Assembly (NCBI RefSeq): GCF_013315695.1
Contig: NZ_CP054353.1
DNA: 64,000 bases
Strand: one strand, 5' to 3'
Source of the DNA: Escherichia coli
Lineage (GTDB): Bacteria > Pseudomonadota > Gammaproteobacteria > Enterobacterales > Enterobacteriaceae
Notes under the pieces: generated by a model
The model's input: only the letters and a program-made list of their open reading frames with translations
Told to the model about the DNA's origin: nothing
Database searches by the model: none
Shown here: piece after piece, positions 12,307-18,750 of the stretch
Numbering within the stretch: position 1 is the first letter of the stretch
How the letters are laid out: every line of letters starts with the position of its first letter
Position numbers and translations under genes: made by a program

Positions 12307-13509
12307 TTACCTGAACTGATAATGACCTTCGCCCAATCGAATAACCCTTCCCTCTTCTTCTGCGCGGTTCAGCCACACACTAATTTGTTCGATGGTTAAA
12401 CCAGTACAAGACGCCAGCCTTTCAATACTTATCGATTCCTTTGCAAGGATCGCCAGTTCCGCCACAAAGAGTTGATAAAAATCGACAGGCGTATGCGCGG
12501 GCATTACTGCGTAATTTGCGTCATCTTCATGCAGCGAAAACAGTTCTGGTTGAACGTTACGGAGTGCTTTGTCATACATCAGCCCAGGAACGTCTGGCAG
12601 TCTGATCGTCACATTCTCAGCCTGTTCAGCACTCCATGACGCCCCATTTTCTACTAATCGTGAATTGGCTGATTGCACATCCTGATTTGGTTTAACCAGA
12701 ACAGGCAGCCACTGATGTTTTAACGCCTCCATCGCTCCGGTTATCGTTCCACCGGTCATTCCCGCACGTACAACCATTGCGCTTTCAGCAAGGCAATAAA
12801 TATATTTATTCCGCGCCATTGCATTGCCGACGGTGAAACGTACCTCTGGGTAAAACGGTGAAATCAACACCAGGTTGCCTGCTATAAGCCCTTCACGCCA
12901 TTTCACTAACGTACTCGTTTTTAACAAGCTATCAGCTAATACGCCAACGGCAGTTCCCCCGGCCTCCAGTGCCGACGCCATTGCACATTCATCAATACCT
13001 CGCGCACCACCAGAGATAACGCAAATCCCCTGTTGGGCCAGTTTCGCTGCCAGTTGTTGGGTATAGCGCAAATCGGCAGTCGGAGCATCTCGCGAGCCAA
13101 CAATCGCCATACCTTCCGCTTGCAGTAATGCTTTATTCCCGCAGCCAAATAAAACGGGAGGTGCATCCGTTCGCAATCGGTTTTTCAAGCGAACGGGATA
13201 ATCGGCATCTCCGCGGGTTAAGATCCATAAACCGGCGCGTTGCCACTTATCTACCGCCAACGCCAGACTATGACCACGCGCCAGCAAGCCAAGAATACGC
13301 TCCTGAGAAATACGCGGATCGCTCCAGCCTGTAAGTTTCTCTTGCGGTTGCGGCACCAGAAGATCGGCGGGACTGATACGTTGGTGCTTCAGCCATAATG
13401 CAAACTTCCCCCATTCACTATTACTAAGAGGTTTATACTCACTCGCCGCCGCGCGAGAAAAATCGCTGGTTAGCAGGAGAGTTGCTTGTGCATTGGCTGA
13501 AAGATTCAT
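12307..13509 (-). CDS. DprA/Smf-like protein; putative partner (PsyrA/RqlI-like) of the upstream helicase
   Basis: 400 aa from ATG at 13509..13507 (the ORF-track start at 13602 lies inside the upstream gene). Rossmann motif VISGGARGIDECAMASAL typical of DprA, and a C-terminal winged-helix-like tail. Start shares one base with the upstream stop (TGATG). Confidence 0.75.
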   Translation of the reverse strand: MNLSANAQATLLLTSDFSRAAASEYKPLSNSEWGKFALWLKHQRISPADLLVPQPQEKLTGWSDPRISQERILGLLARGHSLALAVDKWQRAGLWILTRGDADYPVRLKNRLRTDAPPVLFGCGNKALLQAEGMAIVGSRDAPTADLRYTQQLAAKLAQQGICVISGGARGIDECAMASALEAGGTAVGVLADSLLKTSTLVKWREGLIAGNLVLISPFYPEVRFTVGNAMARNKYIYCLAESAMVVRAGMTGGTITGAMEALKHQWLPVLVKPNQDVQSANSRLVENGASWSAEQAENVTIRLPDVPGLMYDKALRNVQPELFSLHEDDANYAVMPAHTPVDFYQLFVAELAILAKESISIERLASCTGLTIEQISVWLNRAEEEGRVIRLGEGHYQFR

Positions 13510-15605
13510 CAATTTTTTACCGAGGTAGAAGCAAGGGCAAGAGGATAAACCGTCGGGCAACCTGCCTGGCGTAACAGTGCTGTCAGAACTGTCAGCGTCC
13601 ATGCAGAATCCACGATATCATCAACCAGCAACGCCGGACCTGGCATCAAAGGAGGGGTAATCACAAACGCCCCGTCGAGATTTTGACACTGGTGAAAACG
13701 GTTTTGCTGCATTTTCTGCGGTGGATTGTCCACGACTTTTTCAATGGCATCAATAAAAGGTAAGCCAAGTTTCGCCGCCAGTCGCCGGGCAAAATCAGGA
13801 ACCAGGTCGAGGTGCCTTAATGAAGGAACGCAGCATACCCAGGTTGGTTCAGGATGCGGATTCCAGCGTTGGCGAACCATTTCCGCACATGCTTCTACCA
13901 GCTCATCACTTAAGCGCCCCGTTTTTTTCTCCTGTGCTACCTGCTTTCCCCACCCGGAATCTCCCCAACGAGAAAGGATTCGCCCCGTAGATCCTTGTAA
14001 ACCCGCAGGCAAGTTCCCTTTAAATCCGTATTGCGTAAAAGCCCCAGCTGCCACCTGTTTATTGAGATTTAACGGCAGGTCAGCGTGTTTAATAAATAAA
14101 TTTGCCGCATGGAGTAAGCCGCTATCAATGTCGGGCGACAATAACGGATGCTGAAGACAACTGCTACATTTACCACAACGTTCGGCACTTGGCTCATCGA
14201 GTGCACGGCGCAGAAATTGCATTTTGCACTCCTTGGTCGTGATATAGCTTTCAACGTCTGCCAGTTCACTTTTTCTCTGATTCATCAAATGGTTAATTCG
14301 TTCATGATCAGGAGAAAAACTGACGATAGTTCTGCGCCATAATTTCTCGGTATACACCACAGGCGATGGATTTTCCGCTACCAATAATTTCAGTGCTTTT
14401 TCTATTTGCCCATAACGAAGATTCGTCCGTTGTTCAATGCCTCGTAGGGTAAGACCGTCATTCTCGCTAAGTACGTTGAGTATTTCATGAATTTGCGCCT
14501 CCGCAGGAAAGGCGCTTTCACGGAAGAATTGATGAATAGCGCGGTCTTCACCACCACAAAGCAATATGCCAACTGCGGAATCTATAGCACGCCCGGCACG
14601 CCCCACCTGTTGGTAGTAACCGACAATAGACCCCGGCATCTGATAATGAATGACGAAACCTAAATCAGGTTTATCAAACCCCATACCTAATGCCGTCGTC
14701 GCGACCAGCACTTTGATTTTATTTGCCAGCAGTGCCTGCTCCAGATATTCCCTGGCAGTATTAGAATCTTCCGCGCCTTCACAAGTCACGCCGCTGTAGT
14801 AAGCAAATGCACTGATACCATTTTTCCTTAACCACTCGGCGACAAGTTCAGCATCGCGAGTCGTCAGGGTATAAACAATTCCCGATTTGGAAAACTGAGG
14901 GATAACCGTTGCTAACCATGCCAGACGGGATGACTGTTCTCCTAAGACTAAGGCATCAAGCGCCAAACTTTCGCGAGCCAGCGTTCCACGCTGAATCACA
15001 ATGTCACCCAATTGCTGACGGATATCCTCAACAACACGGTTATTCGCTGTCGCGGTTGTACCCAGAACAGGGGTATTCGCAGGCAGTTGGCGCAAAATAT
15101 CTAATATACGTCGGTAATCCGGGCGAAAATCGTGGCCCCAATCAGAGATGCAGTGCGCCTCGTCGACCACAAGCAAGCCAATACGATCGGCTATAGGATA
15201 TAAAACCGTTTCGATAAAGTCCTGGTTTGCCAAACGTTCCGGGGAAACCAGCAAGCAATCGACCTCACCTTGCAGCAACTTATCGCTAATGCGCTGCCAT
15301 TCTTCCCTGTTTGTAGAATTCAACGTTTCAGCCGTAATACCTAACCGTTCAGCGGCGGCAACCTGGTTACGCATCAGGGCAAGCAAAGGAGAGATGATAA
15401 TTGTCGGGCCAGCGCCGCGATCGCGGAAGATTTTACTGGCGATGAAGTACACGGCACTTTTCCCCCAGCCGGTGCGCTGTACAACCAGCAGTTTTCGCCG
15501 CTGATTAACCACTGCATCTATGGCTTCCCATTGCCCTTCCCTGAAAGTAGCGGTGGTATTTCCTAACATCCGCTGTAAAAGCAATTCAGCTCCGTGCTTT
15601 TCCAT
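13509..15605 (-). CDS. RecQ-like DEAH helicase fused to a C-terminal ComF-type PRTase-like domain (PsyrT/RqlH-like)
   Basis: 698 aa. Helicase motifs TGWGKS, VVDEAHCISDWGHDFRPDY, LGTTATA, ATTALGMGFDKPD, YYQQVGRAGRA; CGKCSSC zinc-like motif; C-terminal segment with LLVDDIVDSAWT resembling the PRPP-binding loop of type-I PRTases. Confidence 0.8.
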   Translation of the reverse strand: MEKHGAELLLQRMLGNTTATFREGQWEAIDAVVNQRRKLLVVQRTGWGKSAVYFIASKIFRDRGAGPTIIISPLLALMRNQVAAAERLGITAETLNSTNREEWQRISDKLLQGEVDCLLVSPERLANQDFIETVLYPIADRIGLLVVDEAHCISDWGHDFRPDYRRILDILRQLPANTPVLGTTATANNRVVEDIRQQLGDIVIQRGTLARESLALDALVLGEQSSRLAWLATVIPQFSKSGIVYTLTTRDAELVAEWLRKNGISAFAYYSGVTCEGAEDSNTAREYLEQALLANKIKVLVATTALGMGFDKPDLGFVIHYQMPGSIVGYYQQVGRAGRAIDSAVGILLCGGEDRAIHQFFRESAFPAEAQIHEILNVLSENDGLTLRGIEQRTNLRYGQIEKALKLLVAENPSPVVYTEKLWRRTIVSFSPDHERINHLMNQRKSELADVESYITTKECKMQFLRRALDEPSAERCGKCSSCLQHPLLSPDIDSGLLHAANLFIKHADLPLNLNKQVAAGAFTQYGFKGNLPAGLQGSTGRILSRWGDSGWGKQVAQEKKTGRLSDELVEACAEMVRQRWNPHPEPTWVCCVPSLRHLDLVPDFARRLAAKLGLPFIDAIEKVVDNPPQKMQQNRFHQCQNLDGAFVITPPLMPGPALLVDDIVDSAWTLTVLTALLRQAGCPTVYPLALASTSVKN

Positions 15606-15707
15606 CTTTATCTCCTGCGATCTTTAGGCAGTGATTAGAACGGATTATTAGCAGGTAAATTTGCGAGAGAGATCAAAAAGATGAAGAGAGGAGATAAGAG
15701 AAATGAA

Positions 15708-15735
15708 TTACTGCGAGCAAGCTCGCAGTAATTTG
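15708..15735 (-). terminator. Terminator-like perfect hairpin downstream of gntU
   Basis: TTACTGCGAGC-AA-GCTCGCAGTAA at 15708..15731, about 14 nt past the gntU stop, with T-rich flank. Confidence 0.5.
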
Positions 15736-15744
15736 TCGCAGTAA

Positions 15745-17085
15745 TTAACTCAACAGCTGGAACGCAATCATCCCAACGATGGCACCAACAGTGCCGAGTA
15801 TGGTTTCCATCATGGTCCAGGTTTTCAGCGTTTCGGCTTCGGTCGCGCCGGTAAATTTACCGAACAACCAGAAACCGGCGTCGTTAACGTGGCTGACAAC
15901 AATCGAACCACCGGCGATACAAATCGACAGCGCCGCCATTTGCGCACCGGAGTAGTTCAGTTGTTCAATAACCGGCATCACCAGTCCCACCGCCGTTAAA
16001 CAGGCAACGGTGGCAGAACCCTGAATGATGCGCACTGCAGCTGCCAGCACGAAGCAGGTGATGGCAATCGGCAGGCCCATGCCGGTTAACGCTTCGCCCA
16101 GTGCCGGACCTACGCCTGAGTCAACCAGCACCTGTTTGAACACGCCGCCCGCACCAATCACCAGCAGAATGATCCCCGCCGGTTGCAGCGCGTGACCGCA
16201 AATTTCCATCACTTTATCTTTCGGCATGCCCTGACGCATTGCCAGACCGTAAATCGCCACCAGGCAAGCAACCAGAATCGCGGTAAACGGATGACCAATA
16301 AACTCGAACCATTCGTAAGCAGTAGAGCCTTCTGGCACAAAACGCGCGGCAATGGTTTTCAGCCCCACCAGCACCAGTGGCAACAGGATCAGCGACAGGC
16401 TGAATCCGAAGGACGGCATTTTGCCTTCGCCGAGATGCGGTTCGCTGATGTCGTCAGGAATATGCAACTCCACGTAGCGGCTGATGAAATTACCCCACAG
16501 CGGCCCGGCAATAATCATTCCCGGAATTGCCGCACACAGGCCAATCAGGATCATCCAGCCAAAGTCGGCGTTCATCTGCGATGCCAGCAGCATTGGCGCT
16601 GGTCCAGGCACCAGGAACGCAGCCGCGGCCGCCACGCCTGCAAATAATGGGATTACCAGCTTCACCAGGTTCGTACCGGTGTGGCGCGCCATTGAGAAAG
16701 CAACGCTAATCAGCAGAACAATCGCCACTTCAAAGAACAACGGCAACGCACAGACCAGCCCCGCAAGGCCGATGGCATAATGCGCGCGGCTGTGACCGAA
16801 GGATTTGAGCATTTTGACGGCAATCTGATCGACTGCGCCGGTTTCATGTAAGATCTTGCCAAACATGGCTCCCAGGGCGACAACCACCGCCAGGAAGCCG
16901 AGGGTGCCTCCCATCCCTTTTTCCATCGTCGCTGCGATTTTATCGAGCGGCATACCGGAAAAAAGGCCAGCCCCCATAGACACCACCATTAAAGCCAGGA
17001 AAGCGTGCATACGCGCCTTCATGACTAAAAACAGCAGCAGTAAAACAGACCCTACTGCTGTTAAAACAAGCGTTAATGTAGTCAC
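15745..17085 (-). CDS. gntU: Low-affinity gluconate:H+ symporter
   Basis: 446-aa GntP-family permease; annotated start is GTG at 17085..17083, 3 nt after the gntK stop (see finding on the internal hairpin). Confidence 0.9.
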   Translation of the reverse strand: MTTLTLVLTAVGSVLLLLFLVMKARMHAFLALMVVSMGAGLFSGMPLDKIAATMEKGMGGTLGFLAVVVALGAMFGKILHETGAVDQIAVKMLKSFGHSRAHYAIGLAGLVCALPLFFEVAIVLLISVAFSMARHTGTNLVKLVIPLFAGVAAAAAFLVPGPAPMLLASQMNADFGWMILIGLCAAIPGMIIAGPLWGNFISRYVELHIPDDISEPHLGEGKMPSFGFSLSLILLPLVLVGLKTIAARFVPEGSTAYEWFEFIGHPFTAILVACLVAIYGLAMRQGMPKDKVMEICGHALQPAGIILLVIGAGGVFKQVLVDSGVGPALGEALTGMGLPIAITCFVLAAAVRIIQGSATVACLTAVGLVMPVIEQLNYSGAQMAALSICIAGGSIVVSHVNDAGFWLFGKFTGATEAETLKTWTMMETILGTVGAIVGMIAFQLLS

Positions 17086-17088
17086 TAC

Positions 17089-17616
17089 TTATTTGCCTTT
17101 TTTAATAACCTCAATGGTGCTTGCCACAACACCTTCCAGCGGTTGATCGATATCCACCACCAGTACATCGGTTTCGTCCGCACCCGGCTCCTGCAGCGTT
17201 TCAAACTGCGTCACTAACATTTGGGTTTTAAAGAAATGGCCTTTGCGCGCTTTCAGGCGGCTTTCAATCACATCAAAATCGCCTTTCAGGTAGATGAACG
17301 AGAGATTCGGATTACCTTCACGCAGCAAGTCGCGATAGTGTTTTTTCAGTGCAGAACAGACGATCAGCGACACTTTATTGGTACGCTGCATGGCAAACGC
17401 GGCGTCGTTCAGCGCCTGCAACCACGGTTTGCGATCGTCGTCATTCAGCGGTTCACCAGACGCCATTTTTTCGATATTGCGCCGTGGATGGAGGAAATCG
17501 CCATCAAGAAACGCGGCATGAAGTTGATGCGCCACTTCACTGGCGACCGCAGATTTGCCGCTGCCCGATACGCCCATCAAGACGTAAATGTGGTGATCAT
17601 GGTTAGTCGTGCTCAA
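17089..17616 (-). CDS. gntK: Gluconokinase (thermoresistant)
   Basis: Protein matches GntK from (L)STTNHDHHIYVLMGVSGSGKS (P-loop); the codon at 17616..17614 is TTG, so the gene seems to use a TTG start; the ORF track extends 7 codons further up to another TTG. Confidence 0.9.
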   Translation of the reverse strand: MSTTNHDHHIYVLMGVSGSGKSAVASEVAHQLHAAFLDGDFLHPRRNIEKMASGEPLNDDDRKPWLQALNDAAFAMQRTNKVSLIVCSALKKHYRDLLREGNPNLSFIYLKGDFDVIESRLKARKGHFFKTQMLVTQFETLQEPGADETDVLVVDIDQPLEGVVASTIEVIKKGK

Positions 17617-17646
17617 AGTGGTGCCCCCACAATACAAGAATTAAAA

Positions 17647-17675
17647 ATGTTACGGGTAACTGTTATCGGTAACAT
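17647..17675 (-). promoter_or_regulatory. Tandem GntR operator half-palindromes in the gntK promoter
   Basis: ATGTTACGGGTAAC and TGTTATCGGTAACAT lie adjacent, 10-40 nt upstream of gntK; match the palindromic GntR operator ATGTTACCGGTAACAT. Confidence 0.6.
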
Positions 17676-17754
17676 TGTCCAGCCGGACAATATCAGAAGC
17701 AATATCCATCCGTGCCTTAAGTGTATAAGTGTGAGCTACTTCAAATTTGTGGGC

Positions 17755-18750
17755 TTAAATAGATCCGCCCGGTGACAAGGTGAAACCTAAATCTAACATT
17801 TTCGGTGTCACAGATTCGCCACGAATACGCGCCAGCAGGCGTTCAGCGCCAATACTGCCCATCCGCTCACGCGGCGTCAGTACGCTCGCCAACCGTGGTT
17901 CCATCACCTGACCAATGTCATGACCATGGAAACCGGCAATCGCCATATCGTCAGGAACTTTCAACCCCAGACGCTGGCATTCAAACGCCGCGCCGACCGC
18001 CAGGTCATCATTAGTACAGAACACGCCATCCAGCTGCGGATATTCCCGCCTCGCCTGGCGAATCAGTTCAATACCGGAAGAGTAAGAAGAAGATTGTTCA
18101 ACCATCACGCTATACGGCACCAGGCCTGCATCCAGCATCGCCTGCTCATATCCCTTCTGTTTGATGATAGTACGTTCGTCGAGGCGTGCGCCGAGATAGG
18201 CAATGTGACGATGCCCGCGAGCAATAATGGCGGTGGTCATCTGGCGTGCCGCTTCAAAGTTATCAAAACCGACGGCGATATCGAGACACGGCGACTGGCT
18301 GTCCATCAGTTCCACCACGGGAATCCCCGCCACTTCAATCATCTTTAAGGTGCGCGGCGTGTGCGTACGTTCAGTGAGGATCAGGCCGTCGATATTCCAG
18401 GAGAGCATGGATTCGAGGCGTTCTTGCTCCATTTCCGGTTTATAACCGTAGTGGGCCAGCATGGTCTGATAACCGTGCGCGTCGGTGACGCTTTCGATTC
18501 CGCGTAATACTTCCGCAAAAACCTGGTTGGTGAGAGAAGGTAACAGGACGCCAATCGCCCGGCTGGTGGCGTTAGAGAGGATATCGGGCGCACGATTGGG
18601 AATATAGCCCAGTTCATCAAGAGCGGCGGCAATCTTGCCGCGTAGAGCGACGGAAACCTGCTCCGGGTTACGCAAAAAGCGGCTGACCGTCATTTTGGTC
18701 ACGCCTACACGGTCAGCCACATCCTGAAGTACGGGTCTTTTCTTTTTCAT
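17755..18750 (-). CDS. gntR: LacI-family gluconate repressor
   Basis: 331-aa ORF; N-terminal HTH LQDVADRVGVTKMTVSRFL. Confidence 0.97.
   Translation of the reverse strand: MKKKRPVLQDVADRVGVTKMTVSRFLRNPEQVSVALRGKIAAALDELGYIPNRAPDILSNATSRAIGVLLPSLTNQVFAEVLRGIESVTDAHGYQTMLAHYGYKPEMEQERLESMLSWNIDGLILTERTHTPRTLKMIEVAGIPVVELMDSQSPCLDIAVGFDNFEAARQMTTAIIARGHRHIAYLGARLDERTIIKQKGYEQAMLDAGLVPYSVMVEQSSSYSSGIELIRQARREYPQLDGVFCTNDDLAVGAAFECQRLGLKVPDDMAIAGFHGHDIGQVMEPRLASVLTPRERMGSIGAERLLARIRGESVTPKMLDLGFTLSPGGSI

Follow-up and report, generated by a model that had tools for sequence, protein, structure and literature searches.

A conserved hairpin and U-run inside the first codons of gntU as a probable leaky terminator of the Escherichia coli gntK–gntU operon

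A hairpin followed by a run of five U, here T1, lies on the minus strand within the first 60 bases of gntU (17062-17027), and its stem and U-run show a pattern of synonymous constraint that ranks first among all offsets of the gene. T1 is probably a conserved leaky intrinsic terminator within gntU, with gntU translated from the GTG at 17085 by coupling to gntK. A partial terminator at this site is well supported by the comparison of species, if not proven; that termination occurs, that it is partial and that it shifts the gntK:gntU ratio are all points that we infer.

The DNA analyzed was a window of 64,000 nt from Escherichia coli (assembly GCF_013315695.1, contig NZ_CP054353.1), in which both genes lie on the minus strand. 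It was compared with 80 Enterobacteriaceae species, mostly 80–87% identical to the window at the nucleotide level and three of them 92–96%. Of 5424 E. coli genomes, 5308 match the 80-nt junction of the window with an identity of 99% or more, a figure that carries little information, since only ~1.7 differences would be expected at ~2% divergence.

Results

Gene layout and fold of T1

The genes and the hairpin at the end of the operon are as follows:

17089-17616, minus strand: gntK (gluconokinase) CDS, with a TTG start at 17616 and a TAA stop at 17091-17089; from the ORF list and RefSeq (identical DNA, 528 nt)
15745-17085, minus strand: gntU CDS, a GntP-family gluconate transporter of 446 aa; from the ORF list, RefSeq, Pfam and NF007781
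15706-15733, minus strand: operon-end hairpin, for comparison, 12 nt past the gntU stop, with a 12-bp stem, a loop of 4 and the tail CATTTCTCTT

The GTG of gntU (17085-17083), which is also the RefSeq start, stands 3 nt past the gntK TAA (17091-17089), and a profile search matched GntU to the NF007781 equivalog along its entire length (915.8 bits, 1–446 of 446). An earlier note on this DNA had reported the GTG at 17085, the gntK stop, two hairpin arms, a U-run and an ATG at 17022, and the minus-strand sequence confirms the position of each.

T1 consists of the following parts, listed with the alternative pairing:

17052-17062, minus strand: T1 5′ arm, nt +24 to +34, AACAGCAGUAG, core 17060-17052; from the MFE, centroid and RNAalifold consensus folds
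17030-17040, minus strand: T1 3′ arm, nt +46 to +56, CUGCUGCUGUU, core pairs 17040-17032; from the fold and the 80-species alignment
17027-17031, minus strand: U5 tract (TTTTT from Phe19-Leu20, TTT TTA), corresponding to K-12 3577003-3577007
17035-17060, minus strand: alternative register of the earlier note, CAGCAGUA-N10-UACUGCUG, which leaves CUG between stem and U-run

On the minus strand, CAGCAGTA (17060-17053) and TACTGCTG (17042-17035) are separated by 10 nt, and the latter is followed by CTGTTTTTA (17034-17026) and then by an in-frame ATG, codon 22, at 17022-17020. The CUG repeat allows the arms to pair in two registers. The arms are present as the earlier note described them, but the fold prefers a register shifted by 3 nt (pair probability 0.75 versus 0.23), in which nt 26–34 pair with nt 46–54 (17060-17052 with 17040-17032) in both the MFE fold and the ensemble, at −13.3 to −16.4 kcal/mol as against −11.5 kcal/mol for the alternative. 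The 9-bp core (five G-C, three A-U and one G-U pair) accounts for −13.3 kcal/mol; two closing A-U pairs, which extend the stem to 17062/17030, bring it to −16.4 kcal/mol, on par with the operon-end hairpin (−16.6 kcal/mol, z = −4.26). Only in the preferred register does the UUUUU at 17031-17027 adjoin G54 (17032), the end of the stem, an arrangement typical of intrinsic terminators. The loop measures 11 nt in the MFE fold (~3–8 in a typical terminator), and the pattern scan arrives at a loop of 4 only if it uses the alternative register with three G-U pairs included.

The pair probability of T1 remained at 0.75–0.77 whatever the upstream context (0–200 nt), and no antiterminator competing with the 5′ arm was predicted when those lengths of upstream sequence were included. 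A role of T1 on the opposite strand was rejected, as the hairpin runs into TTAAAAC there and lacks a U-run. No Rfam 15 family matched the gntK–gntU junction. The sole Rfam 15 hit was a chance-level mir-299 match within gntR (E = 0.11; 23 bits, where the gathering score is 67).

Stability of T1 against chance

Taken alone, the T1 hairpin has z = −4.15, with none of 200 dinucleotide shuffles equally stable; its 91-nt context reaches only z = −1.31. Terminator-like patterns are common by chance (six matches in the 3.6-kb region versus 4.1 ± 2.0 expected), and T1 is the sole sense-strand site of this kind that the scan returned at the gntK–gntU junction. Synonymous recodings of the same Leu-rich peptide average −8 to −9 kcal/mol, so the peptide itself predisposes to hairpins, and ~75% of the recodings satisfy the lenient terminator-like criteria used. 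Against this null, the observed −13.8 kcal/mol corresponds to p = 0.03 and hairpin plus U-run to p = 0.008, the latter combination yielding p ≤ 0.05 in 57 of the 80 species. The single-sequence evidence is mixed; the comparative evidence makes T1 more than chance.

Conservation of T1 across 80 species

The synonymous entropy ratio is 0.33 over the stem and U-tract codons (9, 10 and 17–20) and 0.83 over the loop codons (11–15), with a gene median of 0.72, and this pattern ranks first among 410 offsets in gntU for the low stem value and the stem–loop contrast alike. Codon 9 is ACA in 66 species and codon 10 is GCA in 71; both codons are rare, and neither reaches 80% at any other Thr or Ala column of gntU. 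In the U-tract, codon 19 is TTT in all 80 species compared with 46% gene-wide, and codon 20 is TTA or TTG in 78 compared with 17%, with TTT TTR at the U-run in 78 species. A general preference for AU-rich codons at 5′ ends could account for part of this U-tract conservation.

Among the 73 distinct sequences, 93.8% of cells are paired in the preferred register and 89.6% in the alternative one. Changes are one-sided, mostly A to G opposite U or C to U opposite G, with G-U pairing kept. The 80-species alignment contains no compensatory double changes in T1 and its covariation measures equal those of shuffles, so selection on the structure is deduced from constraint alone. In three lineages the stem is much weaker (−5 to −7 kcal/mol). 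A homologous Leu-rich N-terminus is also encoded by the paralogues gntT, idnT and gntP; their first 100 nt are free of U-runs of four or longer, and no comparable single hairpin is seen in the folds predicted for them.

A second hairpin downstream of T1

A candidate structural element, H2, follows T1 and is identified by covariation:

16994-17025, minus strand: H2 hairpin, nt +61 to +92, in which GUCAUGAAGGCG pairs with CGCUUUCCUGGC around the loop CGUAUGCA; from the fold and covariation
16981-16993, minus strand: tail after H2, UUUAAUGGUGGUG in the window and UUUGAUGGUGGUU in most species, with conserved synonymous sites

Most species have a perfect H2 stem of 10–12 bp, and that of the window contains a single U-C mismatch and a single G-U pair; the energy is −10.1 kcal/mol in the window and −16.8 kcal/mol in Klebsiella spallanzanii. 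Across the alignment, 96.3% of H2 cells are paired compared with 91.0 ± 0.6 in shuffles, and 40 cells are changed on both sides compared with 15.9 ± 2.8, neither value being reached in any of 500 shuffles. The pair 63-90, for instance, is found as G-U, C-G, G-C and A-U. The recoding null gives a median p of 0.023. In the tail, codon 31 is GCT in 69 of 80 species (11% gene-wide), codon 32 is TTG in 75 (9%) and codon 34 is GTG in 79; the U-run is short (UUUG).

Start codon of gntU

The profile and paralogue alignments settle the start of gntU at the annotated GTG at 17085, not at the ATG at 17022. The relevant sites are:

17083-17085, minus strand: gntU start codon GTG, kept as the true start on the 80-species, profile and paralogue alignments
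17096-17099, minus strand: AAGG, a weak Shine-Dalgarno (SD)-like core 10 nt before the GTG, within the last gntK codons (AAA GGC)
17020-17022, minus strand: ATG of Met22, an internal Met codon in the 5′ arm of H2, with no SD-like sequence upstream

The start codon is GTG in 59 species, TTG in 21 and never ATG. In 71 of 80 species the SD-like core begins at −13, and it persists even where gntK ends earlier; in 73 the gntK stop either overlaps the gntU start or sits 3 nt upstream of it. GntU residues 2–21 are invariant in all 80 species, with variation mostly at third codon positions, including two-step swaps of Leu codons; heterozygosity at positions 1, 2 and 3 of codons 2–21 (0.066, 0.021 and 0.307) resembles that of the rest of the gene. 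PF02447 aligns residues 5–441 of full-length GntU to profile positions 2–437 of 440 with 561.2 bits, whereas the version beginning at Met22 aligns only from position 18 with 546.8 bits, a loss of 14.4 bits. TIGR00791 aligns GntU 4–444 to its positions 1–438. The N-termini of GntT, IdnT and GntP align with the segment of GntU residues 1–21, with G12, L16, L18 and L20 invariant. The sequence upstream of the ATG at 17022 holds no purine-rich or SD-like stretch, and the PDB offered no GntU homologue in which residues 1–21 could be placed in a fold.

Near starts in general, AU-rich rare codons are favoured, and gntU has TTA at codons 4 and 8. We also considered a 5′ hairpin sequestering the GTG and dropped it, as it is weak (~−5 kcal/mol) and just 36 of 80 species have all of the start codon paired.

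Discussion

Proposed mechanism

In the reading that we favour, T1 would act 24–59 nt into the gntU coding sequence and 26–28 nt past the gntK stop. As polymerase from the gntK promoter reached UUUUU, the stem of CAGCAGUAG with CUGCUGCUG would just have formed; a fraction of transcripts would stop there, yielding a short mRNA for gntK alone that carries a hairpin at its 3′ end, which is expected to fall in the U5 tract (17027-17031), and the rest would enter gntU. A single promoter would in this way yield more message for the kinase than for the transporter. T1 is expected to be leaky because only five of its nine pairs are G-C, its loop is 11 nt long and it has only five U. A ribosome at the gntK stop codon would be too far upstream to block the stem, and one restarting at the weak GTG would be unlikely to reach the polymerase within 60 nt, which is why a terminator could act inside the reading frame. 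Translation of GntU would begin at the GTG at 17085, coupled to that of gntK, and the ATG at 17022 would serve as an internal Met codon.

Neither gntK nor gntU appeared in the two 3′-end and operon data sets searched. Among the full texts searched, none described a gntK–gntU attenuator. A riboswitch-prediction paper places one of its hits ahead of the gntRKU operon rather than at the gntK–gntU junction.

The covarying H2 lends itself to a broader reading, which we regard as unlikely, in which T1 and H2 together make up a conserved module within the first 95 nt of gntU and act as an attenuator internal to the reading frame that makes transcription dependent on translation. Under this proposal, again an improbable one, polymerases without a close ribosome from the weak GTG or TTG would end at T1, or at H2 with its UUUG. 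The start, never AUG, might conceivably be kept weak so that stop-less transcripts terminated at T1 load no ribosomes in need of rescue, although we give this little weight. Such a module, doubtful as it is, would need neither a leader peptide nor an antiterminator.

Alternative explanations

Flanking hairpins are established as a means of segmental mRNA stability in several operons, and a short gntK transcript might instead arise through RNA processing. RNase E-type cleavage would then fall in the single-stranded UUUUUAGU (17031-17024) between T1 and H2, an explanation that we consider unlikely; in its equally tentative second part, T1 would shield the 3′ end of the gntK mRNA, and the downstream fragment, deprived of the gntU start, would be inactive. 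Two adjacent conserved hairpins around an AU-rich linker would suit such a scheme, as would the structural selection on H2, which is transcribed later and cannot affect termination at T1, and a Northern blot could not tell processing from attenuation. Against it, an invariant U5 set right against the stem is what specifically marks an intrinsic terminator, and a protective 3′ hairpin would have no need of it; the cleavage is a candidate only, and the two processes are not mutually exclusive.

It is rather less plausible that T1, with or without H2, is a hairpin-dependent pause or a translation-tuning element that releases no transcript. Polymerase or the early ribosomes might be slowed, keeping transcription and translation, or membrane targeting, coupled, a role that we think quite improbable. 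It would be in keeping with structures conserved over the first 95 nt of a gene that encodes a membrane protein and has a weak start codon, and the short U-run of H2 (UUUG) fits a pause better than release, but T1 has full terminator geometry, and the paralogous transporters are without any such structure.

We think it very unlikely that the hairpin has no function and is a by-product of the Thr-Ala-Val...Leu-Leu-Leu-Phe-Leu codons of a transmembrane helix together with 5′-end codon bias. CTG is the commonest Leu codon and recodings already fold at ~−8 kcal/mol, terminator-like matches are no commoner than in shuffles of the region, the z-score in the 91-nt context is modest, and T1 lacks compensatory covariation. 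These points are opposed by a constraint that falls exactly on stem and U-run and spares the loop, first of 410 offsets, by the rare ACA and GCA in the 5′ arm, which CTG usage leaves unexplained, by TTT in every species and by the lack of structure in paralogues with similar peptides.

That GntU begins instead at the ATG at 17022 (MKARMHAF...), with the hairpin in an untranslated intercistronic leader, was the suggestion of the earlier note and is scarcely credible, for although the ATG would make a better start than the GTG, stands right behind the hairpin and would put the terminator in an untranslated spacer, the more usual arrangement, it is contradicted by coding-type evolution (residues 2–21 invariant with third-position variation in 80 species), by the Pfam alignment from profile position 2 with 14.4 bits lost on truncation, by TIGR00791 and NF007781, which cover the N-terminus, by GntT, IdnT and GntP, which align there, by an ATG that has no SD and is paired in the covarying H2 stem, and by the conserved AAGG and stop/start overlap pointing to GTG/TTG.

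If the leaky-terminator reading is true, a soluble kinase and a membrane transporter are made in unequal amounts from a single promoter by means of a leaky terminator that occupies synonymous sites in the codons for the first transmembrane helix of the transporter. T1 would then be a clean natural case of selection acting on nucleotides within a reading frame. For the engineering of gluconate uptake, recoding gntU codons 9–20 should then raise GntU. The annotated GTG start of gntU should stand. Our understanding of gnt regulation is unchanged. The biology is ordinary and largely known already.

Comparison with known systems

The structure of the gntRKU operon has reportedly been described, and an attenuator between gntK and gntU is said to have been found; that attenuator may be T1, or possibly H2. 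Locus and proposed role, with gntU kept below gntK, would be the same. With only 3 nt separating the genes, no attenuator "between" them could avoid overlapping coding sequence. The earlier note had equated the hairpin with this attenuator, and the present results favour that indirectly, T1 being the sole terminator-like site at the junction, having the strongest synonymous constraint and occupying a workable position.

T1 shares with canonical intrinsic terminators a stem of 9–11 bp that leads straight into a U-run, and like them it is found on the sense strand downstream of a gene; unlike them, it lies inside a translated reading frame and has a loop of 11 nt, five U and a stem that is about half G-C. 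From its loop, U count and G-C share, low to moderate efficiency would be predicted.

In pyrBI and pyrE (rph-pyrE), the distance between ribosome and polymerase decides read-through. T1 resembles these attenuators in lying shortly downstream of a translated reading frame, but neither an alternative antiterminator pairing nor a dedicated leader peptide was found at T1. It also differs in its distance from the gntK stop, which makes masking by the ribosome terminating there unlikely, and no nucleotide-sensing pause is evident.

The tR2 terminator escapes ribosome masking when placed at least 28–30 bp past a stop codon, with an efficiency of ~0.9 (Li et al, 2015; PMC4824070), and, in placements within the first 100 bp of a reading frame, loses only ~10% when set 30 bp past a start codon, where the first ribosome has not yet reached the polymerase (PMC4824070). 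T1 is similarly placed, 26–28 nt past the gntK stop and 23–25 nt past the gntU start, and transcripts terminated there would carry a stop-less gntU fragment of 19 codons. Whereas tR2 is strong and was studied in a synthetic reporter, T1 is natural, weaker and conserved.

The gntKU locus and a hairpin abutting a U-run

The locus in the window is E. coli gntR-gntK-gntU, on the minus strand, found in 5424 of 5426 complete E. coli genomes; K-12 gntU is b4476 (3575721-3577061; K-12 coordinate = window x + 3,559,976). The gntKU DNA (15700-17700) shares only about 97.9% identity with most E. coli genomes; just 5 of 5424 reach 99% or more. O55:H7 RM12579 (97.9% identity) and MS 21-1 (100%) share the same GntK and GntU protein accessions, and the ~40 differences in both coding sequences are therefore synonymous. 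In many E. coli genomes the match to the window ends in the spacer past the gntU stop, 45 nt short of the query end, so the flank beyond gntU seems strain-variable. The next ORF downstream of gntU (13509-15605, minus strand) encodes a 698-aa RecQ-family helicase, flagged as frameshifted by RefSeq in O55:H7 RM12579. Directly upstream of gntK lies the near-palindromic ATGTTACCGATAACAGTTACCCGTAACAT (17646-17674, minus strand), a candidate for the operator pair used by GntR at the gntK promoter.

Features of the locus (window positions, all minus strand; nt + numbers count from the gntU GTG)
17755-18750, gntR
17089-17616, gntK
15745-17085, gntU (RefSeq: 446 aa from GTG, 3 nt past the gntK stop)
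17091-17089, gntK stop TAA
17085, gntU GTG
17060-17053, first arm CAGCAGTA in the originally drawn register, followed by a 10-nt spacer
17042-17035, second arm TACTGCTG in the same register
17034-17026, U-run stretch CTGTTTTTA
17022, in-frame ATG, codon 22
17025-16994, second hairpin, H2 (nt +61 to +92, gntU codons 21-31), covarying, directly 3' of the U-run
to 16981, H2 tail UUUGAUGGUGGUU, conserved, with rare codons GCT (69/80) and TTG (75/80)

The hairpin with its U-run (T1, 17062-17027) is present, and the stop, GTG, both arms, spacer, U-run and ATG all lie where the earlier note placed them; the observation holds overall, apart from the pairing, which is favoured 3 nt away from that drawn. 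The CUG repeat that forms the T1 3' arm also allows a second register, in which nt +26 to +34 pair with +46 to +54 (17060-17052 with 17040-17032), with two further A-U pairs possible. This register is preferred both in folding energy (-13.3 to -16.4 versus -11.5 kcal/mol) and in pair probability (0.75 versus 0.23), and sets the stem against UUUUU (17031-17027) with zero spacer, a predicted fold of textbook terminator geometry. The T1 hairpin alone (-16.4 kcal/mol, z = -4.15) is predicted to be as stable as the hairpin past the gntU stop (-16.6 kcal/mol, z = -4.26). Single-sequence statistics other than this hairpin-alone z are unimpressive: the 91-nt T1 context gave z = -1.31, and terminator-like matches in the region were not enriched over shuffles (6 versus 4.1 ± 2.0). 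Folding predicted no antiterminator alternative to T1, which is therefore not classed with leader-peptide attenuators, and an Rfam search returned no matching family.

Synonymous codon usage mirrors T1

T1 occupies codons 8-20, within a Leu-rich transmembrane helix of GntU, so it has to be judged against synonymous recoding as the null. A fold of about -8 kcal/mol is already what recoded versions of this peptide give; 3% of them reached the -13.8 kcal/mol of the real sequence, and 0.8% had a hairpin and adjoining U-run to equal the real ones. Scanning a genome collection yielded 80 loci from Enterobacteriaceae whose GntU shows 92-100% amino-acid identity. Of these, one incomplete locus was left out, and the other 79 plus the window made up the 80 complete coding sequences for the codon analyses. 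Nucleotide identity of the 79 to the window is mostly 80-87%, with three at 92-96%, which means ample divergence at synonymous sites.

Codon usage across T1 (80 coding sequences)
Codons 9-10, 5' arm: ACA 66/80, GCA 71/80
Codons 11-15, loop: synonymous usage near-free
Codons 17-18, 3' arm: CTG 78/80 and 70/80
Codons 19-20, U-run: TTT 80/80; TTA or TTG 78/80

This per-codon pattern mirrors the predicted structure, the synonymous entropy ratio being 0.33 for stem and U-run codons, 0.83 for loop codons and 0.72 for the gene median. When the same pattern was slid along gntU, the T1 site ranked first of 410 for both low stem value and stem-loop contrast. The codons fixed in T1 are rare ones for gntU: ACA makes up 10% of Thr codons, GCA 14% of Ala codons and TTA 8% of Leu codons, and codons 9 and 10 are the sole Thr (n = 21) and Ala (n = 57) columns with at least 80% ACA and GCA, respectively. 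Paired alignment cells reach 93.8% in the preferred register versus 89.6% in the original one, and RNAalifold picks the former. Variation in the arms is one-sided and mostly retains G-U pairs; the T1 alignment holds zero compensatory double changes, its covariation measures equal those of shuffles, and the stem is much weaker in three lineages. The K-12 paralogues gntT, idnT and gntP encode the homologous N-terminal helix, and their first 100 nt contain no run of four or more U, and no comparable single hairpin appears in the folds predicted for them. Together, the comparison offers good evidence, short of proof, that selection acts on the RNA or DNA sequence as such, with structure as the most economical account.

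Elsewhere in the gene, codons 227-243 (16357-16407, minus strand) have the lowest synonymous-codon entropy of all across the 80 species (ratio 0.44 versus a median of 0.72), below the 5' hairpins.

A covarying second hairpin

In 73 distinct sequences, H2 pair 63-90 occurs as G-U (30), C-G (23), G-C (8) and A-U (5), and pair 69-84 as G-C (47), A-U (14) and G-U (10). Paired cells (96.3% versus 91.0 ± 0.6 in shuffles) and two-sided changed cells (40 versus 15.9 ± 2.8) were each attained in 0 of 500 shuffles, and every slid control dropped to 35-60% paired. Codons 23 and 28 are associated (AAA with GCT, AAG with GCC; Fisher p = 8e-9, phylogeny ignored). These patterns amount to real covariation, which supports H2. 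Its energy is -10.1 kcal/mol in the window versus a median of -15.2, most species having a stronger stem; CTG at codon 30 leaves the stem in the window with one U-C mismatch. Polymerase has already cleared T1 by the time H2 is made, so H2 cannot affect what happens there. Its role may be that of a second weak terminator or a pause, that of a stem protecting the 5' end left by cleavage, or another one.

T1 as a putative leaky terminator

Most likely, T1 acts as a leaky intrinsic terminator at which, 59 nt into gntU, some of the transcription started at the gntK promoter would end. Conservation supports the earlier reading of the hairpin as the gntK-gntU attenuator; termination itself, in occurrence and efficiency, we infer from sequence rather than demonstrate. 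The same short gntK transcript would also result from processing in the AU-rich linker that separates T1 from H2, which we consider unlikely. A pause or translation-tuning role for T1 seems less probable still, and that the hairpin is a functionless by-product is quite improbable given where the synonymous constraint falls.

The gntU start codon

A GntU start at ATG 17022, as proposed earlier, failed every test applied (coding signature, profiles, paralogues, initiation signals), and we reject it as scarcely credible on these comparisons. Across 80 species, 18 of 20 columns of residues 2-21 are invariant, and heterozygosity at codon positions 1/2/3 of codons 2-21 (0.066/0.021/0.307) is as in the rest of the gene. 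The alignment of full GntU to Pfam PF02447 begins at profile position 2, that of the Met22-start version at position 18 and 14.4 bits lower; the TIGR00791 alignment begins at position 1, and 1-446 are covered by the equivalog model for GntU. GntT, IdnT and GntP, whose genes each have their own ATG start and SD sequence, align across the N-terminal segment, with G12, L16, L18 and L20 invariant.

The gntU start codon is GTG in 59 species, TTG in 21 and ATG in none. An AAGG-type core begins 13 nt 5' of it in 71/80, and is retained even in species with an earlier gntK stop. In 26 species that stop overlaps the start as xTGA and in 24 as TAGTG, and in 23 it lies 3 nt upstream, a layout that is classical for translational coupling. 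Upstream of ATG 17022 there is only CUGCUGUUUUUAGUC, and this ATG is base-paired in the 5' arm of H2, a conserved predicted stem. The annotated gntK start in the window (17614-17616, minus strand) is TTG, after GGGGG; both operon genes thus have weak start codons.

Comparison with known terminators

Izu and colleagues reportedly described an attenuator between gntK and gntU in 1997. T1 is a known kind of element, at a locus where it has reportedly been described before; new are only the synonymous-site evidence, the covarying H2 and the universally non-AUG gntU start.

In a study of terminator placement, masking by the ribosome was confined to terminators lying a few bp from the stop codon, and efficiency reached its maximum at about 28-30 bp past it (Li et al. 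2015, PMC4824070). In the same work, the loss of efficiency for a terminator 30 bp past a start codon was only about 10%, as the polymerase was still ahead of the first ribosome; the authors also note that stop-less mRNA results when termination falls within an ORF (Li et al. 2015, PMC4824070). The T1 stem begins 26-28 nt past the gntK stop and 23-25 nt past the GTG, a placement that fits these experiments (Li et al. 2015, PMC4824070).
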